A DNA stretch of 64,000 nucleotides from contig JAUSGI010000004.1 of assembly GCA_030649135.1 (NCBI GenBank), positions 1 to 64,000 of the forward strand. Direction: 5' to 3'. Positions 11,577 to 32,058 of the stretch are shown here, one piece after another (position 1 is the first letter of the stretch; every line of letters starts with the position of its first letter). A program made the position numbers and the translations under genes. This DNA is from a bacterium (GTDB taxonomy: Bacteria; Patescibacteriota; Minisyncoccia; Phycocordibacterales; Zambryskibacteraceae). Under the pieces are notes generated by a model. It did no database searches and was not told the origin of the DNA. It was given only the letters and a program-made list of their open reading frames with translations.

Positions 11577-11577
11577 C

Positions 11578-11917: not shown

Positions 11918-11921
11918 CAAA

Positions 11922-12089: not shown

Positions 12090-12096
12090 CGTAGGT

Positions 12097-12534: not shown

Positions 12535-13109
12535 AAAGTTTCATATGAAACTCTTATTTTAAGAAAAGGGCTATAATTAAGGACATATTGGTGTGCTGTC
12601 GCTTAAATATATGTCTTTTACTCCCCATATTCCACATAATTATCCACAGTTTCGCTAATTTATGGTCTAATTCTCCTTTAAATAAAGAGCTTTTTACGTT
12701 ATAAGATTAAGGACAAAATAAGTACAGCCCCTCGACTTTGCTCGGGGTAAACAAAAACCCGCCGGCAGGCAATCTGCTAGCGGGGTGATCCCGCTAAAGC
12801 GAGATCGGGTCGCCTCAGCTCTTACGAGCTTCGGCGGACCAAGGAAGATTATCCCAGAACGAGAATAGGGCCCAGAAGATGCACGTAACCAAAAAATAAA
12901 AAAGTTGAGGGTTCGTCATCCCTGCCCAAACTCCCAAACCAGAATAAACTTCCGGTAACTGGAATGGCCTTCCAAGAACACATGCCTGGATTCCAATCTC
13001 GATTAGAGAACCGATAATATCCACCAAGCGCCTGACGACATTCTATCTTATAAAGGACAAATTTGTAAGCACAAAGTTGTGGATAACTTTTGTCCTTTAT
13101 AATATGGCT

Positions 13110-13880: not shown

Positions 13881-13914
13881 ATCTATTTAATAAGTAATGT
13901 TGCCACGCACAGGT

Positions 13915-14436
13915 TTACCCACAGCTGAGGCCAATCTTGAGTTCTTCGTCATGAGAAAGAAACATAAAATGGATACGGTATGTTTTTCCCGTAGCTGCCG
14001 ACGTTTTTTGCTTGTCTTTTAGTCCTACGTGGAAGTGGTCATATGGCGGAACACTGTTGATGAAGCCAAAAAATGATGAGGCAAGACCCCAACCCGGGAA
14101 CTCTTTTCCTACCATGCGAAGCCCAATTTTCGATTCCGGAATTTCATACTCGACTGAAACAATTCTGTACCCATATACACCGTAAATTGGACCACTATTT
14201 TTGACCGCTTCCGGCATTGCGTAATGATGCATTTCGCCAATTGGTTGGCCGTTTTCATCACGCGCCACTTCTGCTTCGGGATGAACGTGTGCCACATGAA
14301 TCACGCCTTCGGGTAGATCCTCCAGAGTTAATGTGCGTACTGTGGGTTTTTGCTTGATTGAAATAAATACCATGACCACGAGTAAAGCGAGAAAAACCAT
14401 GCCAATCACAAGGACTAATTTACGGGAGATAAACAT
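13915..14436 (-). CDS. Hypothetical membrane-anchored protein
   Basis: N-terminal TM helix; no recognizable motif. Confidence 0.45.
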   Translation of the reverse strand: MFISRKLVLVIGMVFLALLVVMVFISIKQKPTVRTLTLEDLPEGVIHVAHVHPEAEVARDENGQPIGEMHHYAMPEAVKNSGPIYGVYGYRIVSVEYEIPESKIGLRMVGKEFPGWGLASSFFGFINSVPPYDHFHVGLKDKQKTSAATGKTYRIHFMFLSHDEELKIGLSCG

Positions 14437-14440
14437 ACTT

Positions 14441-16087
14441 TTATTTTTCTTGCTTGCGCTTCAGACAGTATATCTCATTTGCAAATGTTGGTACAAAAAA
14501 GTTTTTTGTTATTGGATTGTAGGCACTTTTTGCAGTAATTCGTTCCGTGGCCTGGAAAAAAGCAGTATTTTTGCCAGTTTCTGCTTCAACCTCGTAGAAT
14601 CGCCCGTCGTTAGAGCCAATATAAATTTTCTCATCGACTAGTAGGGGAGAACTAAAAATTCTTCCTTTCGTTTCAAATTTCCACAATAAATTGCCCGTTT
14701 CTATCCCAAAGCAGTACAGATGTTTATCGAGAGAAGCGATGTAAAGTCGTCCGTCATAAATGAGTGGTGTCGAGTAGAGTGATTCGCCCACCTCAATTTT
14801 GTGGAGCAATCTGCCAGTCGCCATCTCGAGAACATAAGCGTGTCCATTGGAAGAGCAAAATGTCACAGCCTGTTCTTCTTTGTCGAAGGCAAATGATGCC
14901 CGAACTTCCCCTTCAATCTTGAGTTCCCATAACAATTTTCCGGTGTGTACGTTAAAAGCATATACAACTGAGTGATCTGTACTGGCCAAGACCACTCTGC
15001 GCCGGCTTGAGAATGCTGGGGAAGAGGAGATTCGTCCTTCCGCAAGGTATTCCCATCTTTTTTCTCCTGTCGCAGCATCAAGTGCGACTAGCCCACCCCG
15101 TTTTTTCCAAAGGCCGAATTCAAGCCCCACAAAAATTAGGCCAACGTCTTGTGCGATGACCGGAGAAGAGTTTATCCAATCAGCCTCCATAAAAACCCAC
15201 TTTTTCTTTCCGGTATTGGTATCCAATGCATAAAAATTACCGTCATAAGCGCCGAAATAAATTATATCTTTGTAAAGTGCCGGTGAGGAAAAAATCATTT
15301 TCTTGCCTCGCCCCAGAATGCTATATTGCCAGGCAATAGACCCATCACTTTGATTTAATGCCCAGAAGGTACCGTTATCAGCACCGAAATAGACTTTTTG
15401 ATCAGCTATAACTGGGGCTGACTTGGGAATAACATGGAAGTAATTTGGATTCTCACTCTTAAAGCACCACTCAGCACGAAATAGCATTGGTACAGGCGCC
15501 TCTTTTTTGTTAGGCAGATTGGCAACCCCAAGTGCTTCCGCGAAGTCGTCAAGAGTAAACAGGGAAACAATCCTAATGCCTCTGTCATGAAAATATTTGT
15601 AATACTCTGGGCTACGAAAACGCAGAATGGCAAATATCGCATCCACTTTTTTGCCAAGCGATTCTAGTATTTCTACCTGTCTAATGAAACTCTGTCCGGT
15701 ATTTAGTATGTCGTCAACTAAAATTATCCTTTTTTCATTCACTTCCCCCTCAATCATGCGGAGTAGTCCATCTTTTTTGCGCGATTTACGGATAAAAAAA
15801 CCGTCAGTGTCTTGCTCTCGTTCGCTCAAGCTCATGATCATGCCGGTGACTAGAGGAATAGCCGCAACCTCAATCCCGCCGATTTGAAGACCGGAGGTGT
15901 CCGGAAATTCTTTTAGAAAAAGTTCAGTAACAGCGCGAATTACCCGCGGTTTCAGAAGAATTTTTCTGAAGTCGAAAATCCAATTAGATTGGTTGCCACC
16001 AGGAGAGACAAAGTTCTCCTTGCCTCTTGGTATAAAGACTTTCTGCGAAATGACTTCCTTCAAATATGTGCGTGGATCCTGGGTCAC
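14441..16087 (-). CDS. Fusion protein: N-terminal type I phosphoribosyltransferase (OPRT-like) domain plus C-terminal PQQ-like beta-propeller repeats
   Basis: PRPP-binding loop RIILVDDILNTGQS in the first roughly 190 aa, followed by repeated YxGxxDGxxYALDxxTGKxxW PQQ/BamB-like blades. Confidence 0.65.
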   Translation of the reverse strand: MTQDPRTYLKEVISQKVFIPRGKENFVSPGGNQSNWIFDFRKILLKPRVIRAVTELFLKEFPDTSGLQIGGIEVAAIPLVTGMIMSLSEREQDTDGFFIRKSRKKDGLLRMIEGEVNEKRIILVDDILNTGQSFIRQVEILESLGKKVDAIFAILRFRSPEYYKYFHDRGIRIVSLFTLDDFAEALGVANLPNKKEAPVPMLFRAEWCFKSENPNYFHVIPKSAPVIADQKVYFGADNGTFWALNQSDGSIAWQYSILGRGKKMIFSSPALYKDIIYFGAYDGNFYALDTNTGKKKWVFMEADWINSSPVIAQDVGLIFVGLEFGLWKKRGGLVALDAATGEKRWEYLAEGRISSSPAFSSRRRVVLASTDHSVVYAFNVHTGKLLWELKIEGEVRASFAFDKEEQAVTFCSSNGHAYVLEMATGRLLHKIEVGESLYSTPLIYDGRLYIASLDKHLYCFGIETGNLLWKFETKGRIFSSPLLVDEKIYIGSNDGRFYEVEAETGKNTAFFQATERITAKSAYNPITKNFFVPTFANEIYCLKRKQEK

Positions 16088-16139
16088 AGTGTTTGGCCAT
16101 GATTATACCTCATGCCCCGTGATATGATGAGTTTCTGCA

Positions 16140-18083
16140 ATGTTAGGGGGATTTTTTAAAAAATTTACCGAGCAAGCCGATGATTTTTACCACAGTCACC
16201 AGATTGAAGAGTTCTTTGCATGGCTTCATTCCAGCGTACCGCCCAAAGATCAAGAACTAGTATTTTTAAACTTACCACTACAAGAGGAGCTTCTTGATAG
16301 CCGGACCCGCCAAAGGGGGCGTCGTGACAGCGGTTCTATTCTAGCCTTCGTGTTTTGTGAGCCTGGACAACTAGATTCCTCCCTGAAAAAACTTGATCGG
16401 CCTCAAGATAAAGTGCAATGGTATCTGGTTTTTTATGCAGCCGGTATAGAAATATGGGAAAACCCGTCGCGCCACTCCAAAGCACTGCCTATTCGTCTAG
16501 GAGTTGGTAAAGAAGAGAAAAGTAAACTCCTCTCCTTTTCCAGAAAATGTATGGAGGATTTTTTTAAGGAGCCGACCATTCATATTCTCCATAACACGAA
16601 TGGAGAGGATTTAATGGAAGGGGATAGGGTTAGTGTAGACGTGGCGTTATGGATAAACGGGAGCCTTCGCGGGTCTATCATTGTCGAAAATCAGTCTCTT
16701 TACGAAGCAATTAAGCGGGCAAGTTTGGGAGCGTTGCGTGATAACAGAATGAAGCCGGTTGAAGAGCATGAATTGGCTCAAGCACTGATAGAAATTACCG
16801 TTTTTTCAAATTTAAGATTGCCTCTGAGAAAAGCGGATATTACTGATTTCAATATTGATGGACGAAGAGGTTATTATGTCGCTAATGAAGGAAAGAGGGG
16901 GTGGTACCTTCCAGCAGTATTCAACTGCGTAAAATTCAAAGGCATGGCGCATATGCGCGAAAGCCTTATACGGGAGAAGGCAAAAATTTCTCGCGACATG
17001 ATGGATAAGGTACAACTCTATGCTTTTATGGTCGAGGGATTTATTGAAGGAAGAGGAGGTCGTGTGTTGCTTCTTGAGGGGACCGTTGCTTTTGAGGAGG
17101 TGGCTGTTGAAGATTCCTGGTCATCATTCATTGAAGAAGCTCATGTTAGAGGAGATTTGGCAGCCGAATGGGTTATGACGATGCAGGATAAGGACGGGTT
17201 TATGCCGCTTTATGCTGACCCACTCTGCTCTTCTTTTGGCAGAATAGACTGGGCGCGACTGGCCTGTACTACTCACGCTCTTTCATGTTATGGCCAAGTA
17301 ACTCGAAGTGAGCCGTTTCAGAAAGGAGCACGGAATACACTTAGCTATCTTTCACGCCACCTCCTAGAAGTTAGCACTATTGCTGTGAACGTGCGCATTC
17401 CGGCATTGGTGTATTTGGCGCGCGCAGCCATGGTCCTGAAAGAGGAAACTGTGCTCTCAGACATTATGACGCAAATACCGCTTTATTGGCGAAGTCTAAA
17501 TTATCAGCCAATCTTGGCGGCCAATATGGCCACACTCTTCGCTCTGCAGGCAATAAGGAGCAACGGGGCTTTTTTAGCAGAAAGTATAGAGCTTGCTGAA
17601 CAGGTGTTTGCTGATTTTAAGATCAAATATGATGCCGCCCAGCGTATTCAACTTGCCGAGTATCCCGAACTTGCCCATGCCCTCGATCTACTTCACCAGA
17701 TAACAGGAAAAGATGTTTATGCAAAAAAGGCCCAGCAAGTAAAAGAATGGCTTATTGAGCAACAGTTCGAAAATGGTGCGTTTCCATCATATACCAACTC
17801 ATGGTGTGCTTATACCCGTGGTACAGGAAAGATTTTTGAAGCTCTGACAGGGATTCCCGCTTCATACGAAAAAGCTGTCAAAAGCTCGTTTTACTGGCTC
17901 GTACGAATGCAATATGGGGAACATAACATGTATTTTGTGCCTCTAGCGTTTAGGAACAGGGTAGATGGGGGTCTGCGTCATGATCATGCCAATTCTGAAG
18001 CTTGGATTGACGCCGCAGCTCATTTTTTGCTCGGCATCTCGAGAATAATTTCGAGAAAACATGACCCGGAGATACATTCATAG
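16140..18083 (+). CDS. AMMECR1-domain protein with C-terminal alpha/alpha-toroid (prenyltransferase/terpene-cyclase-like) repeats
   Basis: VDVALWINGSLRGSIIVENQSLYEAIKRASLGALRDNRMKP…LIEITVFSNLRL is AMMECR1-like. The C-terminal half has QW-like repeats (QQFENGAFPSY…). Confidence 0.55.
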   Translation: MLGGFFKKFTEQADDFYHSHQIEEFFAWLHSSVPPKDQELVFLNLPLQEELLDSRTRQRGRRDSGSILAFVFCEPGQLDSSLKKLDRPQDKVQWYLVFYAAGIEIWENPSRHSKALPIRLGVGKEEKSKLLSFSRKCMEDFFKEPTIHILHNTNGEDLMEGDRVSVDVALWINGSLRGSIIVENQSLYEAIKRASLGALRDNRMKPVEEHELAQALIEITVFSNLRLPLRKADITDFNIDGRRGYYVANEGKRGWYLPAVFNCVKFKGMAHMRESLIREKAKISRDMMDKVQLYAFMVEGFIEGRGGRVLLLEGTVAFEEVAVEDSWSSFIEEAHVRGDLAAEWVMTMQDKDGFMPLYADPLCSSFGRIDWARLACTTHALSCYGQVTRSEPFQKGARNTLSYLSRHLLEVSTIAVNVRIPALVYLARAAMVLKEETVLSDIMTQIPLYWRSLNYQPILAANMATLFALQAIRSNGAFLAESIELAEQVFADFKIKYDAAQRIQLAEYPELAHALDLLHQITGKDVYAKKAQQVKEWLIEQQFENGAFPSYTNSWCAYTRGTGKIFEALTGIPASYEKAVKSSFYWLVRMQYGEHNMYFVPLAFRNRVDGGLRHDHANSEAWIDAAAHFLLGISRIISRKHDPEIHS

Positions 18084-19569: not shown

Positions 19570-20004
19570 ATGAAACGATACGAAAAGATAATACTGGTTA
19601 TACTTGCCGTTATCGCTACAGTACTAGCAATCTACCTTACCCCACTTAAGAACCTCAACCTCATAGAACCAAGGATTAATACTATTGACCCTAAAACTTT
19701 CTATGATGCCTATGTAAAGAATCCAGATGCGTATGTGTTCATTGATGTCCGCCCGGATAGTAGTTATCAGAGCATTCACGCTCCCGGGTCGATCAATGTT
19801 CCCTTGCACACACTTTATGACGAACGACGTGTACTGCCGAAACGCGGCAAAACAATAGTGCTTATCTGTAGTGGCAACCGTGCTTCTAGAGTTGGTTACG
19901 GATATCTCGAACACTACGGCTTTCTAAATTTGATGCAAATTGAAGGTGGAATAGAAAACTGGCAGCTAGAAGGATTGCCCGTTGAAACCAGAGGCATATT
20001 ATGA
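19570..20004 (+). CDS. Rhodanese-domain sulfurtransferase (membrane-anchored)
   Basis: N-terminal TM helix; rhodanese fold with active-site loop LICSGNRAS (catalytic Cys). Confidence 0.8.
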   Translation: MKRYEKIILVILAVIATVLAIYLTPLKNLNLIEPRINTIDPKTFYDAYVKNPDAYVFIDVRPDSSYQSIHAPGSINVPLHTLYDERRVLPKRGKTIVLICSGNRASRVGYGYLEHYGFLNLMQIEGGIENWQLEGLPVETRGIL

Positions 20005-20678
20005 AAGTTAGGGGAGTTCAGGTGATCGTCGCTATCTTGGTGCTTGTTGGCATTTATATTGCCGTACTGTTCTTTTCGCAAAATGACCAAACTACAGGAG
20101 GTGCTGCTTATCGACAGCCAGAATTAAAATTATCGTTTCGAGAAAACGAGCGTCTCTTGGGTACGGCTACTGCGTCGGTTAAAATAGTTGAATATGCTGA
20201 AGTGGAATGCATTTATTGTAAACGTCTCCACTCGGTGCTTCTGCGCGTCATTGGTGAGAGCGAGGGTAAAGTAGCGCTAGTATACCGGCACTTTCCCCTC
20301 CCGATCCATCCAAAATCTTTTACCGAAGCCATAGCCCTAGAATGTGCCGCTGAAGCAGGCGGCGACTCCACTTTTTTTAGGTACCTCGAGGCCCTTTATG
20401 AAGCCACCCCGTCCAATAATAAAATAGATCTGGCGATACTGCCAGAGCTTGCTCGAACTATCGGTATTTCTAAAGAGATATTTAATAAGTGTTTGGCGGG
20501 TGATCGTCACAAGATGCGCGTGCGTGACGATATGGAATCTGGTTTCGCGCTTGATGTTGATTCTGTGCCACAGCTTTTTGTTATTGCGCCCAATGGTAAG
20601 GTATTTGTATTTAGGAATTCGCCGAGCTATGCCGTACTCAACGCCACTATTATTGCGGCACTCGGGTTAACAAATTAA
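20001..20678 (+). CDS. DsbA-like thiol:disulfide oxidoreductase (thioredoxin fold, CxxC)
   Basis: N-terminal TM/signal segment; active site CIYC in a thioredoxin-like context (…EYAEVECIYCKRLH…). Confidence 0.75.
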   Translation: MKVRGVQVIVAILVLVGIYIAVLFFSQNDQTTGGAAYRQPELKLSFRENERLLGTATASVKIVEYAEVECIYCKRLHSVLLRVIGESEGKVALVYRHFPLPIHPKSFTEAIALECAAEAGGDSTFFRYLEALYEATPSNNKIDLAILPELARTIGISKEIFNKCLAGDRHKMRVRDDMESGFALDVDSVPQLFVIAPNGKVFVFRNSPSYAVLNATIIAALGLTN

Positions 20679-20688
20679 GAGAAGTACC

Positions 20689-21210
20689 ATGGGGTTAATT
20701 ATTATTTTCAAAAGACTCAACTATATTTTTCTAGTTGTATTGACTGCGCTTTTGGTTTTTTTAGCACTGACATTTTCTGCCAATATAGGTATTGTGGGCA
20801 GTGTTGTTTTCGCTGGTGCTCTTCCTGCCTCGACTAAAATAAACATTCTCTTGAATATCCCATACGGATATATTTCTGAATTTTCATCACAATCTCTCGT
20901 CGCAATATTATTTTCTTTGCTTTTCGGTGTTAACCTCGCTGGGTTCGTCTATTATGTGCGGCTCTACAGAGCAACTGCCATCTCTGCCGTTGCTGCGCTA
21001 GGTAGCGGAAGTATTATAAGTGCGATTGTTGGCGTTGGTTGTATTTCGTGTGGTTCGCTTGTCGCCGCCTTTCTCGCTTCGCTATTTGGCGCCTCAAGTC
21101 TGTCGATCATTCTTCCGTTTGGGGGTACTGAATTTAGTCTCGTCAGTATCCTGCTCCTGCTTATATCGATAATGCTCTTGAATCAGAAAATAAAACAAGC
21201 GTATCTATAA
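20689..21210 (+). CDS. Polytopic membrane protein with intramembrane CxxC (CISC)
   Basis: Four or five predicted TM helices; the only two Cys form CISC inside a helix. Adjacent to DsbA. Confidence 0.45.
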   Translation: MGLIIIFKRLNYIFLVVLTALLVFLALTFSANIGIVGSVVFAGALPASTKINILLNIPYGYISEFSSQSLVAILFSLLFGVNLAGFVYYVRLYRATAISAVAALGSGSIISAIVGVGCISCGSLVAAFLASLFGASSLSIILPFGGTEFSLVSILLLLISIMLLNQKIKQAYL

Positions 21211-21997: not shown

Positions 21998-22813
21998 GTG
22001 GATATCATGAAACGGTGGCAGAATTTTTTATTAGTGATTATCGTAGTCGTATTTATTTCCGTCTATACAAGTAGAGATTCTCTTGCGCTACTTGTTTGGC
22101 AGGAGTATCACTTGCCCCAAATGGCAGTTCTGCTTGACGGCAATAATGCAGAGTTAGCGATGTCTATGGGGGGCTACTATTTTAATAGCGTAAATGGAGG
22201 CGGGGAATATAATGTCGAGGTTGCCGAAAAAGCTTACGAAAAAGCAGTTTCGATAAATCCAGGAATTTTGTGGGGGCACTATCAGTTGGCACGGATTCAT
22301 TTTGTGAAAGGTGATTTCGCCGGCGCACTTGAAGAAATAAATAAAGAACTTGAAGCCAACCCAGAGAATCTTCGTTCGCTTTACATACGCGGACTTATCT
22401 ATGGCTATCGGAATGAAGTAGGGGATTTGGAAAAAGCTGAGGCCGACTTTCGCCGGTTCACGGAGTGGGCTCCTTCTGAATGGGCTGGATACAATGATTT
22501 GGCCTGGGTTCTCTTAAAGGAGGGGAAATATGCAGATACAGAAATTGAACTAAAAAGGGCGTTTGAGAATATATCAGAGGGAAATATGAACCCGTGGCTC
22601 TGGAATGCTCGAGGAGTGGCAGAGTTAAATCTTAGAAAATATTCTCGTGCCACTAATTCTTTTAAAAGAGCCAAAGAGTTGGCAGAGAAATTGACTCTGG
22701 AAGATTGGCGGCGTTCTTATCCGGGCAATAATCCTGCCACAAGTGGCGAAGGGTTCTCGGCTTTTCGAAGAGCTATTGACGAGAATCTTCGTCGCGCCGA
22801 GAGTAAAAGATAG
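21998..22813 (+). CDS. Membrane-anchored TPR-repeat protein
   Basis: N-terminal TM helix, then TPR-like helical pairs (…AYEKAVSINPG…YQLARIHFVKGDFAGALEEINKELEANPEN…). Confidence 0.6.
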   Translation: MDIMKRWQNFLLVIIVVVFISVYTSRDSLALLVWQEYHLPQMAVLLDGNNAELAMSMGGYYFNSVNGGGEYNVEVAEKAYEKAVSINPGILWGHYQLARIHFVKGDFAGALEEINKELEANPENLRSLYIRGLIYGYRNEVGDLEKAEADFRRFTEWAPSEWAGYNDLAWVLLKEGKYADTEIELKRAFENISEGNMNPWLWNARGVAELNLRKYSRATNSFKRAKELAEKLTLEDWRRSYPGNNPATSGEGFSAFRRAIDENLRRAESKR

Positions 22814-22865
22814 CTGTGGATAACGGTTGGGGGCTCTCAGCGGGTATTTTGCTATACTTTAACTA

Positions 22866-24605
22866 GTGGTAAACACACTTTTGTCTAAGAAGAAAATTCT
22901 TCCCGTAGCTATACTTTTGGGCGGTTTGTTAATCGCTTTGGGTGTTTTTATATCGGCTAATTTTGCTTCAGCTCAATCTTATAATGTTTCGCAATGGACT
23001 GAAGAAACCGGGGCCGGGATCTCTACACCCGCCTGTAGCTCCGCGGCTCCTTCGGTAACCTGTGTAGGCAACAAGCCGAAGGTGACCCTCTCCTGGGCCT
23101 ATGATACTCGTATTCCAAGCAAGCATGGGGAATGCGTCAAGGCAGCATACTCTATTTGGTCACCGGGTATTGATGATACCTTAATAGAATGGGGTGATAA
23201 CAAAAATTGTACTGATGAAAAGAGTCTTGTTAATCTTGCGAACAATACACCCTACTCCTACAAAATTTATTGGGTAACGGTGACTGATATTGTTACCAGT
23301 GATGAGTTAGTGCGCTCATTCACCACACCGAATTGCACAGTGGATCCTCCGGCAACGCCAAACCTTAGTGTCGTCGCGAGCTGTTCTGCTGCCAACGTGC
23401 CGCAGGCGACGCTCTCATGGACTGTTTCTTCTGTAACGGGAATCAGTAATTACCACATTGAACGTTGCAGGGGAGTAAGTTGCACAGCATTTTTACAAAT
23501 TAACACCTCTACTACCTCTCCTTATACAAGCCCCGTCCTCGCGACGAGTACTACCTATCGTTATCGAGTTCGCTCCCACAGTCACACCAATACATTTTTT
23601 AGTCCGTACTCAAACGTTGTGACCGTGACAATGCCGGCAAGCTGTGTCCTTTCCCCTGACCTTACTGCAGGAGCCACTACAGCAATGCCATCACCCAGTA
23701 TTCCTGGGGAGAGCGTCTCATTTTCATCAAGTGTTTCCAACATTGGCACCGATGTTGCTTTAAACTTCCACAACATCTTCCAAGTCTCCAACAGCAGTAT
23801 GACCTCGACAATTGTAAGGGTGGACACGGGAATAGTTCCTTCACTTGCCGTAGGTTCCAGCACCAATATCTCCGGTTCTCACGCCTTTGTTTCTTCCGGC
23901 ACCTATAATGTTCGCGCTTGTGCCAATATGTTGACCTCTGGGAATATGAATATTGACATCGATGGCGAATCAGACGTGACCAACAATTGTGGTTTATGGA
24001 CGATAGTGGAAGTTTCATCGTTCGACTACAGTCTGTCCAATTCCGGCACATCGAATGTGACCAAGGCGAGTGGTAATGCTTTCACTACTAATACTATTAC
24101 CAAAACGTTACTTTCTGTGTCGACACAATCAGTAACTCTTGACGTGTCAGGTGAGCCATCTGGTGTAACACATTCCATTTCCAACCAGGGGTGCTCTCCC
24201 ACATGCACTTCGGTCATCACTTTCACCGTTCCCCCGAGTACTCCCAATGGTACTTACCTCATCAGGGTTACCGGTTCTCCTCTCAACAAACAGACGAGCT
24301 TCAACTTGGTTGTCTCGGGTAACCCCATGAGCGTCTCATGCTCATCTTCTCCGAAGACGGCGTTAGTTGGCGAACTTGTCACTTGGACAGCGAGTGTCTC
24401 CGGAGGCACTCCGCCACTATCATATTCGTGGAGCGGCACTAATATCCCAACTAGTCCGGCTCCCACTACCAACCCATTCAGTATTCGCTACAGTACCATT
24501 GGACCGAAAACTGCCACCATTACGGTTACTGACACGAATTCCGTACAAGCCTCATGCCCGTCTACCATTCAAATTAACTTTAACCCCCTGTTTGAGGAAT
24601 TTTAA
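22866..24605 (+). CDS. Large secreted surface protein with CARDB-like and PKD-like domains (paralog 1)
   Basis: Signal or TM N-terminus; PDLTAG…SNIGT (CARDB-like); C-terminal LVTWTASVSGGTPPLSYSWSGTN (PKD-like). Thr/Ser-rich. Confidence 0.7.
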   Translation: MVNTLLSKKKILPVAILLGGLLIALGVFISANFASAQSYNVSQWTEETGAGISTPACSSAAPSVTCVGNKPKVTLSWAYDTRIPSKHGECVKAAYSIWSPGIDDTLIEWGDNKNCTDEKSLVNLANNTPYSYKIYWVTVTDIVTSDELVRSFTTPNCTVDPPATPNLSVVASCSAANVPQATLSWTVSSVTGISNYHIERCRGVSCTAFLQINTSTTSPYTSPVLATSTTYRYRVRSHSHTNTFFSPYSNVVTVTMPASCVLSPDLTAGATTAMPSPSIPGESVSFSSSVSNIGTDVALNFHNIFQVSNSSMTSTIVRVDTGIVPSLAVGSSTNISGSHAFVSSGTYNVRACANMLTSGNMNIDIDGESDVTNNCGLWTIVEVSSFDYSLSNSGTSNVTKASGNAFTTNTITKTLLSVSTQSVTLDVSGEPSGVTHSISNQGCSPTCTSVITFTVPPSTPNGTYLIRVTGSPLNKQTSFNLVVSGNPMSVSCSSSPKTALVGELVTWTASVSGGTPPLSYSWSGTNIPTSPAPTTNPFSIRYSTIGPKTATITVTDTNSVQASCPSTIQINFNPLFEEF

Positions 24606-24615
24606 TTTCTCGGTA
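24036..24615 (+). repeat. Roughly 580-bp near-identical repeat, copy 1 (3' end of paralog 1)
   Basis: Almost base-for-base identical to 26451-27030, about 95 percent or more by eye, including the stop codon and first bases downstream. Confidence 0.85.
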
Positions 24616-24683
24616 CCACGGTAATTTTGCCAGCTTACTCGCATTGTGAAGTGGAAGAGTTCGGCATATACTAAAGTGTAGTA

Positions 24684-27020
24684 ATGACCTTCAAGCACGC
24701 GTCAATCCAACCTAATGTCTTACTTGCACTAATTTTTGCAGTAAGTTTTTTATTTGTATCTACCCCCACTGCCATCGCAGTTGATACCTGTAATGTCTCA
24801 CCACAAACTGCTGTTATCGGTGAATTAGTCACCTGGTCAGTCAGTGGTGTGCGGGGCCCTTTTTTGAGCGCAACTTACGAGTGGTCCGGGACTGATGGCC
24901 TTTCTGGCTCAACTCGGCTTGTACAGAAGTCGTACTCAAGCGCTGGAACGAAAAATGGATATGTGGAGTCCAGGACTCGGGGCATAGGGGAGGAAAGTTG
25001 CAGTATGACTGTGCTACCCGCTCCACTGCTTGTTGTTTCCTGTAGCGTTTCTCCGACGTCTGCCAGTCTTAATCAACCTGTCACGTGGTCTGCGACAGCT
25101 TCGGGAGGAGATTTGTTGGCGACGTCTCAGACTAGAAACTTTGGTAATCAGCCGTTGACAACCACGGTCTTTGACTTTAGTGGCCTTGTCGGCAGTGCGT
25201 CCGTGGATTCTTTTTATGTGTCATATGACTGGCAGTGGGAAGACGGGGGAAATGATGGTGTTGCTAAGGGAAACAGGAAAGTAAATGTTGGTCAGACTGG
25301 TCTTATCTTCTCGGCCTTGAAGGATGATGACAGTCACGGTGTGCCTGGCCCGAATTGTCTGGGCTATACTGGAAACTCTGACGCCTATGATTACTGCATG
25401 TCGATTCACAGTTCAAGCTGGAATAACGCTGCGAAGAAGCTCACCGTGCAATGGGAGGGTGTCACGGATAGAGATATCAACACTGTCACCAGATTTAATG
25501 TCACTGCCAAAGCCCCAGCCGAACATATTTTCTCGTGGTCAGGAACCAACGGCCTCTCCGGAACAACTGCCTCAGTTTCAAAATCATATTCCACTACTGG
25601 GGTAAAAACTGGGAACGTGACCGTCACATCTGGAAGTCAGTCGGTCACAGGAGTCTGTGATAATTCGGTGTCTGTGCTAGGCCCTCTTCCCGACCTTACC
25701 GCCGGCCCCGTTTTCCCTACTTCAGCGACAGCAGGTACCGCAAAGATATTTACCTCAACGATCAGTAATAAGGGTTCTCTAAGTACTGGTATCTCGTTTA
25801 ATAATTTCATGCAAGTGGCGACTGCTCCCAATGGTAGTGGGATTGTCAGTGATACTTCTTTCGTCGGTATGGCCGCTCTGGCCGCCGGTAGTGCCAATAC
25901 ATTTAGTAAATCGCATACTTTTGTTTCAGCCGGTATCTACTCACTTCGTGTGTGCGCTGACAAGAGTTCAGCTACAAACGCCGGTGTGATTAATGAGGGG
26001 ACAAACGAAGGGAACAACTGTGGCGCGTGGACAACAGTGACCGTATCGAATCTTCCCGACCTTACCGCCGGCCCCGTTTCTCCTAACTCGGCAACAGTAA
26101 GTATCGCAACCACTCTGTCCGCACCGGTCTCAAATATCGGAACGGGTTCGACCAGAGTGGGCTTTACCAGTCTCTTCCAGAAAGCCACGAGTAACACTGG
26201 TGCAAATGCTGCAGATATAGGTACTTTCACCAGGTCAAGTGCGTTTCTCGCAGGCGGTTCAATGACGGCTTCTCTTTCCTACACCTTCCCAAGTGCTGAT
26301 GGGGGCACGACCCGTTATATTCGTGTGTGTGCTGACAAGAGCTCTGCTACAAACGTTGGTGTGATTACGGAGTCGAACGAAAACAATAACTGTGGTGATT
26401 GGACTGATGTATCTGTGCTGGTGCCGCCATCGGCGTTCAACTACAATCTTTCCAATTCCGGCAACTCCAATGTGACCAAGGCGAGTGGTAATGCCTTTAC
26501 CACCAATACTATTACCAAAACGTTACTTTCCGTGTCGACACAATCAGTAACTCTTGACGTGTCAGGTGAGCCATCTGGTGTAACACATTCCATTTCCAAC
26601 CAGGGGTGCTCCCCCAGGTGTACCTCGGTTATCACTTTCACCGTTCCCCCGAGTACTCCCAATGGTACTTACCTCATCAGGGTTACCGGTTCTCCTCTCA
26701 ATAAACAGACGAGCTTCAACTTAGTTGTCTCGGGTAACCCCATGAGTGTCTCATGCTCATCTTCTCCTAGAACAGCATTAGTTGGCGAGCTTGTCACTTG
26801 GACGGCGAGTGTGACTGGAGGTACCCCACCTCTCGCATATTTATGGAGCGGCACCAACATCCCAACCAGTCCGGCTCCCACCACCAATCCGTTTAGTATC
26901 CGCTATAGCACTATCGGACCGAAAACTGCCACCATTACGGTTACTGACACGAATTCCGTACGAGCCTCATGCCCGTCTACCATTCAAATTAACTTTAACC
27001 CCCTGTTTGAGGAATTTTAG
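24684..27020 (+). CDS. Large secreted surface protein with PKD-like and tandem CARDB-like domains (paralog 2)
   Basis: N-terminal PKD-like motif (VTWSVSGVRGPFLSATYEWSGTDG). Two tandem CARDB-like modules (LPDLTAGPV…VCADKSSATN[AV]GVI…NNCG[AD]WT), then the shared C-terminal module. Confidence 0.7.
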   Translation: MTFKHASIQPNVLLALIFAVSFLFVSTPTAIAVDTCNVSPQTAVIGELVTWSVSGVRGPFLSATYEWSGTDGLSGSTRLVQKSYSSAGTKNGYVESRTRGIGEESCSMTVLPAPLLVVSCSVSPTSASLNQPVTWSATASGGDLLATSQTRNFGNQPLTTTVFDFSGLVGSASVDSFYVSYDWQWEDGGNDGVAKGNRKVNVGQTGLIFSALKDDDSHGVPGPNCLGYTGNSDAYDYCMSIHSSSWNNAAKKLTVQWEGVTDRDINTVTRFNVTAKAPAEHIFSWSGTNGLSGTTASVSKSYSTTGVKTGNVTVTSGSQSVTGVCDNSVSVLGPLPDLTAGPVFPTSATAGTAKIFTSTISNKGSLSTGISFNNFMQVATAPNGSGIVSDTSFVGMAALAAGSANTFSKSHTFVSAGIYSLRVCADKSSATNAGVINEGTNEGNNCGAWTTVTVSNLPDLTAGPVSPNSATVSIATTLSAPVSNIGTGSTRVGFTSLFQKATSNTGANAADIGTFTRSSAFLAGGSMTASLSYTFPSADGGTTRYIRVCADKSSATNVGVITESNENNNCGDWTDVSVLVPPSAFNYNLSNSGNSNVTKASGNAFTTNTITKTLLSVSTQSVTLDVSGEPSGVTHSISNQGCSPRCTSVITFTVPPSTPNGTYLIRVTGSPLNKQTSFNLVVSGNPMSVSCSSSPRTALVGELVTWTASVTGGTPPLAYLWSGTNIPTSPAPTTNPFSIRYSTIGPKTATITVTDTNSVRASCPSTIQINFNPLFEEF

Positions 27021-27030
27021 TTTCTTGGTA
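26451..27030 (+). repeat. Roughly 580-bp near-identical repeat, copy 2 (3' end of paralog 2)
   Basis: See copy 1. Confidence 0.85.
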
Positions 27031-27087
27031 TCGCCTTAATGTTTGCAAGTTCACTTGTACTGTTTTGCATGATAAAATGGTTCAATT

Positions 27088-27109
27088 CACCCCGCCATGG
27101 CGGCGGGGC
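27088..27109 (+). repeat. GC-rich palindromic motif, family B (caccccgccatggcgg[cg]gggc), copy 1
   Basis: Related copies at 48743-48767 and 57957-57998, each just after a plus-strand stop codon. Confidence 0.5.
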
Positions 27110-27130
27110 AAGCAATAAATAAAGTGAATT

Positions 27131-28885
27131 ATGCATATTGACGAAAATAAGCTTGAGAGTTTTATGATGGACTCGGGTCTGGTCTCTAAGAAGGAGATTG
27201 AGCTCGCTAAAAGTGAAATTAAGGGCAAAGATACGAGTATCGGAGAAGCGTTGGTGAACAAGGGCGCTTTAACCGAAGATGATTTGCGCCGAATGCAGGC
27301 CTATATTCTCGGTATCCCTTTCGTTGACCTGAAGAATCAGAAACTCGATTTCTCCGTGCTCTCTCTTATTCCCGAGCCCATTGCGAGAAATCACAACATT
27401 ATTGCTTTCAGAAAGATTGAGGACAGTCTGGAAGTAGCCATGCTTGATACCGAAGACCTGACGGCCATCGATTTTGTTAAAAAGAAAGTGGGGCTTAAAA
27501 TCTTGCCTCGTCTGACGGATGACGAATCTATGAAGTGGGCATTACTTTCTTACCAGAAGACGCTTAAAGCGGAATTCGGGGACATCATTCAGAAAGAAGC
27601 CAACTCGCTTAGAGCCATGAGCGACAAAATTGGCGGAGAGGATATCACTGAAGGGGACCTAAAAAAACTGGCCGAGGATATACCGGTGGTACGCATTGTC
27701 GACACGCTCTTGAAACACGCTATCATTCAAGATGCTTCCGATATTCATATTGAACCGGAGGAGGATAAGGTGTTGGTGCGCTATCGCATAGACGGCATCT
27801 TGCGCGACGCCATGATTTTGCCGAAGAATACCGCCTCCGGCATCACCGCTCGTATCAAGGTGTTATCCAGTCTAAAGCTCGACGAGAAGCGGGTGCCGCA
27901 GGATGGCCGTTTTAAGATTGATGCCGGAGGCGAGAAGGTTTCTTTCAGAGTTTCCACTCTACCGGTTTATTATGGCGAGAAGACGGTCATGCGTCTTTTG
28001 CGCGAGAGCGTTTCCGGTTTTACTTTAGAGAGTCTCGGGTTTCATGGGCACGGTCTCGATAGTTTGCATAAATCGCTCAAGGCGACTACCGGCATGATTC
28101 TTGCCACCGGTCCGACCGGCTCCGGCAAAACTACTACTCTCTACACCATGCTCGATATTGTTAATACTCCAAACGTTAACATCTCCACCATCGAAGACCC
28201 TGTCGAATATCAGATGATGCGCATCAACCAGACTCAAGTACGTCCGGAAATTGGTCTCACCTTTGCCAACGGCCTGCGCACTCTGGTGCGCCAGGACCCG
28301 GACATTATCATGGTCGGAGAAATCCGCGACAACGAGACGGCGGCGCTGGCTATCAACGCATCACTCACCGGTCACTTGGTGCTCTCGACTCTCCACACCA
28401 ATTCCGCAGCAGGTGCTATCCCGAGGCTCTTAGACATGAAAGTTGAACCATTTCTCCTAGTTTCTACTTTGAATATTGTGATTGCTCAACGTTTGGTCAG
28501 AAAGCTTTCGGCCTCGAAGACCAAGTATTTTCTAAACAAGGGGGAACTAGCCTCGCTTGGCAATGTTATCTCACTTGAGAGAATGCTCGGTCTCCTTAGG
28601 GCCGAGAAGATTATCGGTGAGAAAGACGGTTTCGATAAAATTCCGTTTTGGAAGCCGACTCCCGGCAAAGACAGCGAAGACGGTTATTCAAGTCGTATCG
28701 GTATTCACGAAGTGCTCACGGTGACGCCGACTGTGAAAAACTTGATTATGAAAGGGGCGACGGCAGGGGAGATAGAGGAGCGGGCGACATCGGAGGGCAT
28801 GATGACGATGATTGAAGACGGCATTTTCAAAGCGGCGCAAGGTATTACCACTATAGAAGAGGTCTTAAGAGTGGTGTCGGAATAA
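27131..28885 (+). CDS. pilB: Type IV pilus assembly ATPase PilB / GspE family
   Basis: Walker A GPTGSGKTTTLYTML, Asp box, His box and a GspE N-terminal domain. Confidence 0.9.
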   Translation: MHIDENKLESFMMDSGLVSKKEIELAKSEIKGKDTSIGEALVNKGALTEDDLRRMQAYILGIPFVDLKNQKLDFSVLSLIPEPIARNHNIIAFRKIEDSLEVAMLDTEDLTAIDFVKKKVGLKILPRLTDDESMKWALLSYQKTLKAEFGDIIQKEANSLRAMSDKIGGEDITEGDLKKLAEDIPVVRIVDTLLKHAIIQDASDIHIEPEEDKVLVRYRIDGILRDAMILPKNTASGITARIKVLSSLKLDEKRVPQDGRFKIDAGGEKVSFRVSTLPVYYGEKTVMRLLRESVSGFTLESLGFHGHGLDSLHKSLKATTGMILATGPTGSGKTTTLYTMLDIVNTPNVNISTIEDPVEYQMMRINQTQVRPEIGLTFANGLRTLVRQDPDIIMVGEIRDNETAALAINASLTGHLVLSTLHTNSAAGAIPRLLDMKVEPFLLVSTLNIVIAQRLVRKLSASKTKYFLNKGELASLGNVISLERMLGLLRAEKIIGEKDGFDKIPFWKPTPGKDSEDGYSSRIGIHEVLTVTPTVKNLIMKGATAGEIEERATSEGMMTMIEDGIFKAAQGITTIEEVLRVVSE

Positions 28886-28917: not shown

Positions 28918-29298
28918 ATGACCCAAATTGACAGAAAATACGATTTAGAAGAAAGGACAGCATTGTTCGGAGAATCAGTAATAAAATTATGCAGAAATAT
29001 TAAGCAAGATAATGTCATATATCCGATTGTCGGACAGCTTATCCGATCCTCGACCAGTATCGGCGCTAATTATATGGAAGCTAACGGAGCTAGTTCTAAA
29101 AAAGATTTTGTCAGTAAAATTTTCATTTGTAAAAAAGAGTCCCAAGAAACAAAGCACTGGCTAAGAATGCTTAATTCTTGTGGAATAGAATCAATTTCTC
29201 TTAATTTGTCTCCAATGCAGAAAGAATGTCAGGAATTAATTTTTATTTTTACAAAAATTGCCAGCTCGTCTCGTGCCAATCAGCAACTCACCAACTAA
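28918..29298 (+). CDS. Four-helix-bundle protein of the 23S rRNA intervening-sequence (IVS) protein family
   Basis: GQLIRSSTSIGANYMEANGASSKKDFVSKIFICKKESQETKHWLRM matches the IVS-protein core (…IPANIAEG.GR.S.KEF..FL.IA.GS..E…HL). Confidence 0.7.
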   Translation: MTQIDRKYDLEERTALFGESVIKLCRNIKQDNVIYPIVGQLIRSSTSIGANYMEANGASSKKDFVSKIFICKKESQETKHWLRMLNSCGIESISLNLSPMQKECQELIFIFTKIASSSRANQQLTN

Positions 29299-29373: not shown

Positions 29374-30585
29374 ATGTCTCTCTACAAATATAAAGCCAAG
29401 GATAAGGAAGGTCAGGTATACGAACGTACGCTCGAGGTCAAAAATCGCTCCGACTTGTATGGTGTGATTCGCGAGGAAGGCGGTAGTGTGGTTTCTATTC
29501 AAGAGCTCAAAAGTTTTACTCCCTTGATTTCTCTCGGCAATATATTGGGCGGCGTCAAAACTCATCAAAAAATTACTTTTGCCAAAAACCTTGGTCTGAT
29601 GATGACCGCCGGTTTGCCGGTAACCCGCGCTCTCTCCGTGATGAGCAAACAATCGAAAAGTAAACCATTCAAAAAGTTACTCTCTGACCTCGAAGAAGAT
29701 GTTAGCCACGGCAAAACTCTTTCTGAATCGTTGGGTAAACGGCCCAAAGTGTTTTCCGCGCTTTTTATTTCTATGGTTAAGGCCGGCGAAGAATCGGGTT
29801 CCGTCTCGGCCTCACTTGGCATTGTCGCAAACCAGATGGAGAAGTCTTACCTCTTGGCGAAGAAGGTGCGTGGCGCGCTTATTTATCCGGCAGTGATTAT
29901 CTCGGTCATGATTATCCTTGCCATTCTCCTGCTCATTTTCATGGTGCCTACTTTGACCGCCACTTTTGAGGGCATTGGGGTCAAGTTGCCTTTGTCCACA
30001 CGGGTGCTCATCGCTGTTAGCGGTTTTCTGGTGGACTATACGCTTCCCGTGGTTGCCGGACTTATCGCGCTTTTGGTTTCTTCCGTTCTATTCATACGCA
30101 GTGGTATTGGTCGGAATCTGACGGACATAATTTCCCTGCGTATCCCGGTCATTGGCGAGTTGGTCAAGGAAGTCCAAGTGGCTCGTACCGCACGCACACT
30201 CTCCTCGCTCCTCTCCGCAGGTGTGCAGATTGTGGTGGCGCTTGAGGTGACTAGCGAAGTTTTACAAAACCATCTCTACCGAAGCGCGATCGAGCGCGCA
30301 CGTGATGCTATCCAGAAGGGGGAGCCGATGTCGGCGGTCTTTGTTGAATATGAGCGTCTCTACCCGCTTTTTGTTGGCGAGATGGTGGCTGTGGGCGAAG
30401 AGACCGGTAAAATCGCGGAAATGCTCATGGGCGTCGCAAACTATTACGAGGAAGAGGTGGACCAGAAGACCAAAGACCTCTCGACCATTATTGAACCGAT
30501 ATTGATGATTATCATCGGTATTGGAGTGGGCATCTTCGCCATTTCGATGCTTGCACCGACTTATTCTCTGGTGGATTACATTTAA
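29374..30585 (+). CDS. pilC: Type IV pilus inner-membrane platform protein PilC / GspF family
   Basis: Two GspF repeats and three TM segments; typical PilC length and motifs. Confidence 0.9.
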   Translation: MSLYKYKAKDKEGQVYERTLEVKNRSDLYGVIREEGGSVVSIQELKSFTPLISLGNILGGVKTHQKITFAKNLGLMMTAGLPVTRALSVMSKQSKSKPFKKLLSDLEEDVSHGKTLSESLGKRPKVFSALFISMVKAGEESGSVSASLGIVANQMEKSYLLAKKVRGALIYPAVIISVMIILAILLLIFMVPTLTATFEGIGVKLPLSTRVLIAVSGFLVDYTLPVVAGLIALLVSSVLFIRSGIGRNLTDIISLRIPVIGELVKEVQVARTARTLSSLLSAGVQIVVALEVTSEVLQNHLYRSAIERARDAIQKGEPMSAVFVEYERLYPLFVGEMVAVGEETGKIAEMLMGVANYYEEEVDQKTKDLSTIIEPILMIIIGIGVGIFAISMLAPTYSLVDYI

Positions 30586-30590: not shown

Positions 30591-31049
30591 ATGAAAGACA
30601 AAGGATTTAGCATGCTCGAAATCCTTTTGGTCCTTTTTATACTATCGCTCGTGGTTGCCATGGTCGCTTTCTCATTTTCTAAATTTAATTCTTCCAAAGC
30701 GCTCAACCAGAGCGCCTCTTTAGTCGTCGCCATTTTGGATGAGGCGCGGTCTCTCACGCTTTCTTCGGTTGATGCTTCCGGGTATGGTGTTAATTTCCAA
30801 GAATCGCAAGTGGTGTTGTTTAAGGGCGTCACTTATTCACCGTCTGACCCATCAAATGTAGTTACCGATATTAACGCCCTGGTAAATCTTCGCAACATTG
30901 TTCTCTCCGGCGGGGGTACAAGCGTAGTTTTTAAACGTCTGACCGGTAACACGGACGAGGCGGGTACGGTGGAAGTGTTTCTCAAAGCTACGCCAGAAAT
31001 TTTTCGTACCGTCAGTATCAGCAATACGGGAGTGGCGGCATCGAACTGA
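30591..31049 (+). CDS. Prepilin-type N-terminal cleavage/methylation domain protein (pilin or pseudopilin)
   Basis: KGFSMLEILLVLFILSLVVAMV: G|F(S/T)LxE class III signal. Confidence 0.75.
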   Translation: MKDKGFSMLEILLVLFILSLVVAMVAFSFSKFNSSKALNQSASLVVAILDEARSLTLSSVDASGYGVNFQESQVVLFKGVTYSPSDPSNVVTDINALVNLRNIVLSGGGTSVVFKRLTGNTDEAGTVEVFLKATPEIFRTVSISNTGVAASN

Positions 31050-31058
31050 CATCTATTT

Positions 31059-31550
31059 ATGAAAAATCCCCAAAAACATTTGAATCGCGGCCTAACTTTG
31101 GTGGAGGTGTTGATTGCCACTTCTATTATCCTGATTTTCCTCATGGCATTGCTCGGTGCCCATAATCTTTACCTCAAAACCGCCTTGGCGAACGGTGAAG
31201 TGGTCAAGGGGGCTTATCTGGCCGAGGAAGGCGCGGAAGTCGTCCGATTTCTGAGAGATTCTTCTTGGGATACCAATATTGCGTCACTTTCTCTAGACAC
31301 GGATTACTATCTGGTTTGGTCAGGGGGAGCCTGGCAGGTCACTACCGCCGAGACTCTCATAGATTCTGTCTTCGAGAGAACAATAACTCTTTCCGCGGTT
31401 TATCGTGACGCTTCCGCTGACATTGTTTCGTCAGGCGGGACGCTTGACCCGGACACTTTGATGGTAGTCTCGAGCGTGTCTTGGCCCAAAAATGGGATAA
31501 CCACCACCAAATCGATTTCGACTTATATCACTAATATCTTTGATGACTGA
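31059..31550 (+). CDS. Prepilin-type N-terminal domain protein (minor pilin)
   Basis: NRGLTLVEVLIATSIILIFLMALLG prepilin motif. Confidence 0.7.
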   Translation: MKNPQKHLNRGLTLVEVLIATSIILIFLMALLGAHNLYLKTALANGEVVKGAYLAEEGAEVVRFLRDSSWDTNIASLSLDTDYYLVWSGGAWQVTTAETLIDSVFERTITLSAVYRDASADIVSSGGTLDPDTLMVVSSVSWPKNGITTTKSISTYITNIFDD

Positions 31551-32058
31551 CATGCCGTACTCCTTCTATCGTCGCGGATTTTCTTTGGTGGAGATGCTTA
31601 TTTATATTTCTATTCTGGTTCTCATGCTTGCCGTTATCATGAACGTGATCGTTTCCATGACTGGCGCAGAGCGGGTGATTAAAGCTTTAAGAAATATAGA
31701 AAATTCCGCTACAGTAGGTCTGGAGCGTGTGGTGAGAGAAACACGGCAGGCCGAGAACATCAATGTCGCTTCGAGTATTCTCGGTTCAGATCCTGGCACG
31801 CTCGTGCTCAATGGCACTGATGCTCTCGGTAATCCGCGGGTTGTAGAGTTTTATCTCTCCTCGGGTAAACTTTTACTGAAGGAAAATGGAGTAGAAGTCG
31901 GGGCCCTGACTCAGGAGGATGCCCAGGTCAGCGGTTTGATTTTTTACCTGTTTTCCGCATCGGATGTCGAAGGTGTCAGAACCGAAATGACGATTGAAAG
32001 TGGTACCAGCACTTATTATCGTTCCGAAAAGTTTTATGCCTCGGCGCTTTTACGTTAG
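31540..32058 (+). CDS. Prepilin-type N-terminal domain protein (minor pilin)
   Basis: RRGFSLVEMLIYISILVLMLAVIMNV prepilin motif. Confidence 0.7.
   Translation: MMTDMPYSFYRRGFSLVEMLIYISILVLMLAVIMNVIVSMTGAERVIKALRNIENSATVGLERVVRETRQAENINVASSILGSDPGTLVLNGTDALGNPRVVEFYLSSGKLLLKENGVEVGALTQEDAQVSGLIFYLFSASDVEGVRTEMTIESGTSTYYRSEKFYASALLR

Follow-up and report, generated by a model that had tools for sequence, protein, structure and literature searches.

Most Patescibacteria (Candidate Phyla Radiation, CPR) are uncultured epibionts, and among the machineries with which they might recognise and hold a host, type IV pili are the only candidate that is broadly conserved. Here, we have analysed a window of 64,000 nucleotides (nt; positions 1 to 64,000 of contig JAUSGI010000004.1, assembly GCA_030649135.1, Zambryskibacteraceae), in which two tandem open reading frames (ORFs) on the same strand, gene 1 and gene 2, lie just upstream of the type IV pilus gene pilB and encode the proteins p1 and p2. 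An initial annotation had described them as giant paralogous surface-protein genes with a near-identical 3' module. The paralogy was borne out, but the proteins, with 579 and 778 amino acids (aa), are not giant. The locus raises the question of why two genes with different bodies end alike, and what the shared end may be for. On balance, and partly by analogy with known pili, we think it probable that p1 and p2 form a pilus-linked adhesin pair whose repeat reflects both selection and gene conversion and whose C-terminal module acts as a dock.

Extent of the repeat and architecture of the two proteins

A repeat finder and a pairwise alignment placed the two copies in register at an offset of 2415 nt. 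The identity was 91.4% for 24036-24615 vs 26451-27030, and over the last 195 codons p1 and p2 agreed at 91% of nt and 95% of aa positions, with 52 substitutions in 585 nt. Thus, 'near-identical' overstated the similarity, whereas the claim that the repeat includes the stop codon and downstream bases was correct: homology runs past the stop, and the entire 78-nt spacer behind gene 1 can be aligned, with indels, to the 110 nt that separate gene 2 from pilB. A five-way alignment showed that this spacer also aligns, up to the next ATG, to the spacers of three related loci described below (P0122, L001 and P0002). The repeat unit is therefore module plus spacer (∼24019-24683 vs 26434-27130, ∼0.67 kb). 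Its longest exact shared runs are of ∼80 nt, two exact runs of ∼80 and 71 nt lie in one low-divergence tract (Table 1), and no further copy of the module was found in the 64-kb window.

Upstream of the module the proteins are built differently. The domain order of p1 is a Sec signal peptide (ASA|Q), an N-terminal domain, an Fn3-like domain and a divergent CARDB domain, and that of p2 is a signal peptide (AIA|V), PKD1, PKD2 (with an insertion of ∼140 aa), CARDB1 and CARDB2. The PKD/CARDB-like make-up proposed earlier was confirmed for CARDB (PF07705), which scored above the Pfam cut-off of 22.7 bits in both proteins (32.8 bits in p1; 40.6 bits, in two stretches, in p2). For PKD the match fell just short, as PKD_4 in p2 reached 25.4 bits against a cut-off of 27, and p1 had only a weak Ig_3 match. 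Both proteins are Thr/Ser-rich as stated (28–29% Ser+Thr) and contain 14–15 cysteines each, four of them conserved in the module. The reported internal CARDB duplication in gene 2 was also recovered; the two domains share 49% of aa, and four-fold degenerate sites are 50% identical (26% expected at random). By these values the duplication is real but older. It should be noted that the NCBI record of p2 (P0001, 671 aa) begins at M108 and thereby loses the signal peptide and the first PKD domain (start region 24684-25004). Because spacer homology stops exactly at the ATG at 24684, the longer ORF is supported. The p1 sequence is identical to NCBI protein P0121.

Two genes in a slot that holds one in relatives

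The window genome has two copies of the module gene, whereas close relatives have one. In a roughly genus-level relative (PilB 96% identical in aa and 87.5% in nt), P0122 is the sole gene between the TPR protein gene and pilB, and encodes a full-length orthologue of p1 (67% identity) that includes its odd CARDB domain. The same slot in L065 is occupied by P0002 alone, with the 3' end of the TPR gene upstream and the start of pilB 35 nt downstream. In this protein an N-terminus of the p1 type is joined, at a domain boundary, to a body of the p2 type, and this chimera is evidence for cassette shuffling at the locus. L001 likewise has a single gene in the TPR–pilB slot.

The bodies and the modules of the two genes have different closest relatives. 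The body of p1 is closest to P0122; its CARDB domain, 35–40% identical to those of p2, P0002 and L001, has its own orthologue there. CARDB2 of p2 is closest, and orthologous, to the CARDB domains of P0002 and L001 (67% aa identity). The modules of p1 and p2 are 91% identical in nt, and either is 80–82% identical to that of P0122 or P0002; the corresponding synonymous divergence (dS) was 0.35 between p1 and p2 and 0.77–1.01 between either copy and its orthologues. Site patterns placed p1 and p2 together against P0002 at 99 sites, vs 27 and 31 for the alternative groupings. Since the bodies have separate orthologues and the modules are closest within the genome, the bodies are old and were inherited independently of each other, and the module was homogenised in this lineage, a description that we regard as very probably right for these sequences. 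A recent whole-gene duplication followed by fast divergence was considered and rejected, because orthologues of either body type exist elsewhere and the synonymous sites have reached saturation. Within-genome clustering was not seen in the tandem pairs of L004, L016 and L026, which are older and orthologous across genomes; concerted evolution is therefore not general in the module family.

The second gene might have been acquired from another strain by Campbell-type or other homologous integration through module and spacer, in which case the mosaic described below would consist of donor and recipient segments, and no continuing conversion between paralogues long established in one genome would be required. 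Such an origin would fit the finding that p1-type and p2-type bodies fill the same slot singly in relatives, the repeat unit of exactly module plus spacer, as a single crossover there would give, and a central patch of the module with dS as high as between genomes. However, along most of its length the p1 module has its closest relative in the p2 module and vice versa, and neither of the alternative site patterns prevails (27 vs 31). No sequence resembling a donor was found, and scanning metagenomes with the N-terminal region that only p2 has gave no relatives. We therefore consider acquisition from another strain rather unlikely.

The single gene in relatives would also fit an origin of the duplication as an assembly artefact, that is, a mis-join of strain alleles or a collapsed and re-expanded repeat. 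The contig comes from a short-read metagenome-assembled genome, its exact runs (up to 80 nt) might lead to tangles in a de Bruijn graph, and no independent assembly was found that spans the region: exact-protein look-ups for p1 and p2 gave no other assembly of the tandem, and the single Logan contig from the same organism starts inside pilC (SRR13727527 carries an identical ComZ-like gene). On the other hand, 9% of positions differ between the copies, and each gene has a body and a signal peptide of its own. The tandem path needs reads joining the gene 1 spacer to the start of gene 2, which two single-gene alleles could not supply, and, by reasoning rather than from reads, an assembler that changes path inside the repeat would leave the pairwise differences where they are. 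An artefact is thus very improbable, and the assembly-collapse hazard that had been thought likely is small, given a 9% difference and longest exact runs of ∼80 nt.

Selection and patchy gene conversion

To what extent the similarity of the modules reflects selection was analysed by dS, non-synonymous divergence (dN) and their ratio omega (Nei–Gojobori), and by four-fold sites counted at conserved residues. Between p1 and p2, dN was 0.024 and omega 0.07; of the 52 nt differences, ∼41.5 were synonymous and 10.5 non-synonymous. By these measures the module is under strong purifying selection, and it is conserved throughout the family (44–88% aa identity across species), which is what would be seen if selection alone had acted on an old duplication, with no conversion. 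However, the synonymous sites and the non-coding spacer are also alike. Four-fold sites are identical at 90 of 114 positions (79%) in the module vs 3 of 24 (12%, saturated; random expectation 26%) in the adjacent CARDB domain (Fisher P = 1e-9), dS between p1 and p2 is well below that to the orthologues, and the older tandem pairs of L016 and L026 cluster orthologue-wise. Selection without conversion is thus extremely improbable. Because of the four-fold step, the homologous non-coding spacer and the clustering of synonymous differences, a dual cause is indicated, namely purifying selection together with patchy conversion or recombination. Conversion, which the initial annotation had given as the cause of the similarity, is a part of the explanation and an incomplete one.

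The module is a mosaic of sub-tracts. The Ig-like half had dS 0.21, a central patch 1.09 (omega 0.03) and the last 35 codons 0.04, with one synonymous and one non-synonymous difference. The central patch is still 95% identical in protein. In the densest 35-codon window 19 codons differ, a clustering that was reached in none of 20,000 permutations, and the terminal run without differences had P of about 0.01. On these values, the last 35 codons are the tract homogenised most recently, whereas the central patch was probably left unconverted or was imported; at 24438-24498, p1 matches P0002 and p2 differs. The synonymous step, the sister relationship of the modules within one genome and the mosaic of dS thus uphold the earlier claim of recombination between the paralogues. 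Its wording as 'recent' is appropriate for sub-tracts only and not for the module overall (dS 0.35). The comparisons show that patchy gene conversion or homologous recombination acted after the lineage split from its single-copy relatives. As a phenomenon, gene conversion of this kind is ordinary. It resembles the concerted evolution of tandem surface-protein genes in its sharp synonymous boundary, its higher similarity within the genome than to orthologues and its mosaic tracts; it differs in that conversion is limited to the conserved module and spacer, and the bodies are alternative 'alleles' that relatives hold singly in the slot.

An origin of the clustered differences by a diversity-generating retroelement (DGR) was rejected, as the changes are ordinary third-position changes between two coding copies. 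No phase-variation signals were found in 22800-27131, where there is no homopolymer of at least 7 nt and only one trivial (GT)4 repeat.

The C-terminal module and its family

We collected homologues of p2 and p1 and also ran a profile against 1.8 billion representative proteins; together, this yielded 113 proteins with the full 195-aa module, which lies at the extreme C-terminus in 112 of them. About 107 of the 113 end in [FLYI][EKQ]EF, and the tail of the family, NPxFEEF-COOH, is nearly invariant. The parts N-terminal to the module range from 15 to >1,300 residues. Among 73 scanned proteins, InlB B-repeats (Flg_new_2) were found in 27, CARDB in 8 and Laminin_G_3 in 6; other domains were DUF2341 (named 'MshQ-like' by NCBI), SdrD_B, TSP1, N_BRCA1_IG and Fn3, and weak matches were obtained for PKD (4 proteins) and PKD_4 (2 proteins). 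By sequence, p1 and p2 are tandem paralogues in a Paceibacteria/Parcubacteria-wide family of Sec-secreted, non-pilin, multi-Ig-domain proteins, and the N-terminal parts of this family (CARDB, InlB B-repeat, LamG/DUF2341, SdrD-B, TSP1, Fn3) are, judging from these architectures, swapped freely.

AlphaFold2 modelled the module as two beta-sandwiches, one Ig-like with a CxxxC motif and the other PKD-like (mean pLDDT 89.7). The last eight residues, including NPLFEEF, had no secondary structure, and the last three had pLDDT <50. Nevertheless, P574, E578 and F579 were at least 90% conserved in the 73 proteins. A tail that lies outside the fold yet is conserved bears the signature of a linear motif acting on another molecule. 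A Foldseek search of the module against the PDB returned generic tandem Ig folds only, with no specific match, and neither Pfam nor NCBIfam has a model for the first (Ig-like) domain or the tail. We found no description of module or tail in the literature searched (Patescibacteria/Parcubacteria sorting signals, CARDB, adhesins, minor pilins and PilY1). Thus, as far as the curated libraries and the literature searched can tell, neither the module nor its linkage to pilB seems to have been described. An EF end was present in 59 of 120 homologues of gene 2, and an E-x end in about 92 of the 120.

Two CARDB/PKD genes in L068 (Parcubacteria, 10001-16595) stand in tandem, with an IS200-like Y1 transposase gene, inside a ribosomal protein operon between L2 and S19; the product of the first (P0068) ends in ..AYEEF.

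Known ways of anchoring or assembling surface proteins were checked for p1 and p2. Both have signal peptides of the signal peptidase I type and no class III motif, and neither matches the Pfam profile N_methyl or shows a pilin helix, so they lack the class III prepilin features of modular pilins. There was no Pfam match to DUF2341 or Laminin_G_3 in either protein, nor to the PilC/PilY1 profile with its beta-propeller. Nothing follows ...INFNPLFEEF-COOH in p1 or p2 that could be a sortase (LPXTG-type) signal, and an NCBIfam scan gave no match to a known C-terminal sorting domain. Neither protein has a membrane anchor, a lipobox or a sortase signal. The module shares with the sortase, PEP-CTERM and GlyGly-CTERM systems a short conserved C-terminal signature on secreted surface proteins; unlike these, it has no hydrophobic helix or basic tail, and the motif is the very end of the protein with a free carboxylate.

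Association with the type IV pilus operon

We collected 28 species-representative loci with the full module, 25 of which were informative for synteny. The module gene was followed by pilB in 20 (20 of the 25 informative loci), at a distance of at most 700 nt in 17 of these 20 and of 4–30 nt in several. In the remaining eight, three contigs ended just past the gene, three continued with TIM, the usual last gene of the pil cluster, and two had neither. The link to the pilus locus is thus stronger than had been claimed from the position of pilB (27131) in the window, with synteny conserved in at least 20 species-level genomes. The usual order in the family is a single module gene, pilB–pilC, three minor-pilin genes and a ComZ-like tip pilin gene. 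The three minor pilins have a class III signal peptide with Glu at +5, and a GspH/I/J-like order.

The last pilin of the operon is named 'PilX N-terminal domain-containing protein' by NCBI and has no Glu at +5. Its AlphaFold2 model consists of a pilin helix and sheet, a beta-solenoid insertion, a flexible linker and a confident C-terminal strand, and its top Foldseek match was Thermus ComZ (6qvi, E 2e-6). On the basis of this model, the gene fits a ComZ/PilX(PilK)-type tip pilin. It resembles ComZ of Thermus thermophilus, a competence pilus tip pilin, in its pilin fold with a large beta-solenoid insertion and in having ComEC and RecJ genes nearby; it differs in an identity of only ∼12% and in a ...W[KE]E[IV]E C-terminus that is specific to the Patescibacteria family. 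The gene content suggests that the operon encodes a competence-type (DNA-uptake) pilus. Genes for RecJ, RNase H and ComEC lie a few kb 3' of the pil operon (36465-39983), and in L073 (10001-12906) the ComZ-like pilin gene adjoins ComEC.

A C-terminal end of the type GG[YW]xIxxW[KE]E[IV]E (aromatic-x-E-hydrophobic) was present in 96 of 120 ComZ-like homologues (P0224–P0343). Among 1,462 ORFs of the fetched loci, ends of the form aromatic-x-E-hydrophobic occurred almost only in the ComZ-like and adhesin families. The likeness between the ComZ-like end and the adhesin tail F[EQK]EF-COOH is suggestive at the sequence level.

Proposed function of the module

With signal peptidase I signals and no anchor, lipobox or sortase signal, p1 and p2 would be released after secretion unless held by something. 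The best docking candidate is therefore the module, as it alone is conserved and is genetically linked to the pilus operon. In our model, which builds on synteny, architecture and analogy, it would dock or retain these otherwise releasable proteins on the type IV pilus apparatus, and the variable N-terminal domains would bind targets, for example host cell surfaces. Two paralogues would give one pilus system two binding specificities, and the shared module would provide the homology that allows cassettes to be gained, lost or exchanged. Judged by their likeness to known systems, p1 and p2 have about an even chance of being pilus-associated adhesins, and a role of the locus in host attachment is plausible from the domain content.

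The closest analogy is with PilC/PilY1 of type IVa pili (Neisseria pilC1/pilC2), in which the last ∼10 residues dock on the PilK minor pilin by beta-strand addition (PMC13533445). Like p1 and p2, these are large Sec-secreted non-pilins encoded with pilus genes, with a conserved C-terminal part, a variable N-terminal binding part and two paralogues per genome; the short end peptide is functionally critical there (PMC13533445), and conserved and free here. Unlike in PilC/PilY1, the module gene is 5' of pilB and not after the minor pilins. Docking of MshQ (Vibrio MSHA pilus) on MshP via its C-terminus has likewise been predicted by AlphaFold modelling (PMC13533445). Some module proteins share DUF2341 and Laminin_G_3 with it, are called 'MshQ-like' by NCBI and are encoded in the pilus operon, whereas p1 and p2 have neither DUF2341 nor LamG, and the module is unrelated to the C-terminus of MshQ. 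The free conserved tail, as modelled, is compatible with strand addition in the style of PilC/PilY1, although by this analogy docking through a tail strand remains a doubtful proposal. Equally tentative, and in our view improbable as a whole, is an extended version in which interchangeable adhesins that are not pilins are seated on the tip complex of a competence-type pilus by a 'plug' peculiar to Patescibacteria, made up of the module and its FEEF-COOH tail. Beta-strand addition would hold the plug in place, and in this the plug might compete with, or take the place of, the similar ..W-K-E-I-E strand of the ComZ-like pilin. Scattered xEF-tailed CARDB/PKD proteins would then be a repertoire of alternative pilus tips, and swapping of cassettes via the module, as in this window, would direct the pilus to new hosts.

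Alternatively, module and tail may be a general surface-retention signal of Patescibacteria, recognised non-covalently by a receptor in the wall, S-layer or membrane, and the pilus link would reflect co-regulation. Many CARDB/PKD proteins with other last domains carry xEF-type tails, and several xEF-tailed proteins are encoded far from pil genes. In one variant, the acidic FEEF-COOH end could be clamped by the TPR protein, which is extracytoplasmic and encoded next to the adhesins. C-terminal peptides, EEVD and PTS1 among them, are classic ligands of TPR domains, and a membrane-anchored TPR gene lies directly 5' of the module gene in the window and in seven close relatives (L001, L002, L009, L012, L032, L069 and L065); its N-terminal transmembrane helix predicts an outward-facing TPR domain. 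Against a general signal, 20 of the 25 informative genomes show tight linkage of the full 195-aa module to pilB, often with only 4–30 nt between the genes, and the TPR gene is confined to one small clade: a hidden Markov model (HMM) built from the TPR orthologues found none outside the closest clade, and the TPR protein was accordingly rejected as a general receptor for the module. A retention signal thus seems possible but somewhat unlikely, and we retain the pilus-linked adhesin pair as the favoured reading.

Several observations weigh against this reading. The Nomurabacteria locus L072 (4442-15521) has pilB, pilC, pilins, the ComZ-like pilin and TIM without an upstream module gene, and the module protein is therefore accessory and not core. 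The ComZ-like tip pilin appears to carry its own C-terminal strand, and in the published framework a tip pilin with its own strand typically belongs to a system in which no adhesin has to supply one (PMC13533445). In place of the beta-propeller of PilC/PilY1 there are two beta-sandwiches. Proteins with xEF tails but other last domains are encoded away from pil genes (L066–L068), so that the tail may mark proteins for the surface in general and not for the pilus in particular. For the evolutionary part, intragenomic conversion and integration of a foreign allele via the shared module give inseparable patterns, and bubble-popping by the assembler could have inflated the tracts without differences.

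What began as a local repeat has thus become a family-level lead, namely an unannotated, strictly C-terminal and pilB-linked module with an invariant free tail on more than 100 adhesin-like architectures. Should the module indeed be a pilus dock, it would identify what determines the specificity of these pili and account for the variability of the N-termini, and an HMM of the module together with the xEF tail would be a handle for cataloguing host-binding repertoires in metagenomes. The window itself shows a route of diversification, in which bodies that hold one slot singly in relatives are stacked in tandem via the module, and the module then undergoes patchy conversion. If docking is wrong, ordinary segmental gene conversion between tandem surface-protein paralogues would remain.

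Organisation of the locus and neighbouring genes

The coordinates of the two genes, their parts and the pilus operon are shown in Table 1.

Table 1 Features of the adhesin–pilus region (positions in the 64,000-nt window)
Feature	Position	Strand	Basis or remark
TPR protein gene	21998..22813	+	Pfam TPR_2 and related families, translation
Gene 1 (p1), 579 aa, GTG start	22866..24605	+	ORF
p1 CARDB domain, divergent	23655-24020	+	
Module copy 1 (p1 aa 386-579)	24021..24602	+	Alignment
Low-divergence tract of module copy 1	24115..24284	+	Two exact runs; the dS in the text is for the whole Ig-like half
Central patch of module copy 1, old synonymous divergence	24321..24497	+	
Last 35 codons of module copy 1	24499..24602	+	
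Tail NPLFEEF-COOH of p1	24582-24602	+	
Gene 1 3' spacer, degenerate copy of adhesin–pilB intergenic region, ends at gene 2 ATG	24606..24683	+	78 nt; five-way spacer alignment
Gene 2 (p2), 778 aa	24684..27020	+	ORF
p2 CARDB1	25689-26054	+	
p2 CARDB2	26055-26435	+	
Module copy 2 (p2 aa 585-778)	26436..27017	+	
Tail NPLFEEF-COOH of p2	26997-27017	+	
Gene 2–pilB intergenic region	27021..27130	+	110 nt; GC hairpin at 27090-27108
pilB, type IV pilus assembly ATPase	27131..28885	+	Pfam T2SSE 1.4e-120, MshEN
23S rRNA intervening-sequence protein family gene, four-helix bundle, between pilB and pilC	28918-29298	+	PF05635
pilC, platform protein	29374..30585	+	Pfam T2SSF 8e-58
Three minor-pilin genes (30591-31049, 31059-31550, 31540-32058)	30591..32058	+	Pfam N_methyl, sequences
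ComZ/PilX(PilK)-like tip pilin gene, 439 aa	32061..33380	+	NCBI name, AlphaFold2, Foldseek

In most relatives pilB and pilC are adjacent; L069 and L070 have an ORF of 155–161 aa at the position of the PF05635 gene. In L072, a Tsp45I-like gene lies between pilC and the pilin genes, and a DGR-like pair of bAvd and reverse transcriptase genes is found nearby.

The hairpin in front of pilB (CCCCGCC-ATGGC-GGCGGGG) has a predicted energy of -15.9 kcal/mol (z -2.1) and is absent from the spacers of relatives. A near-copy is present in an intergenic region at 48747-48765, so that the window contains two matches vs 0.17 expected. This element may be a small palindromic element or a terminator without U-tract. 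Just 5' of the TPR and adhesin genes, genes for a rhodanese, a DsbA-like thioredoxin and a Cys-containing polytopic membrane protein occupy 19570-21210; they may form a local disulfide-formation system for the Cys-bearing adhesins. Further upstream, a tRNA cluster at 11352-11918 comprises Arg(tcg) on the minus strand, followed by Gly(gcc), Pro(cgg), Pro(tgg), Pro(ggg) and Gly(tcc).

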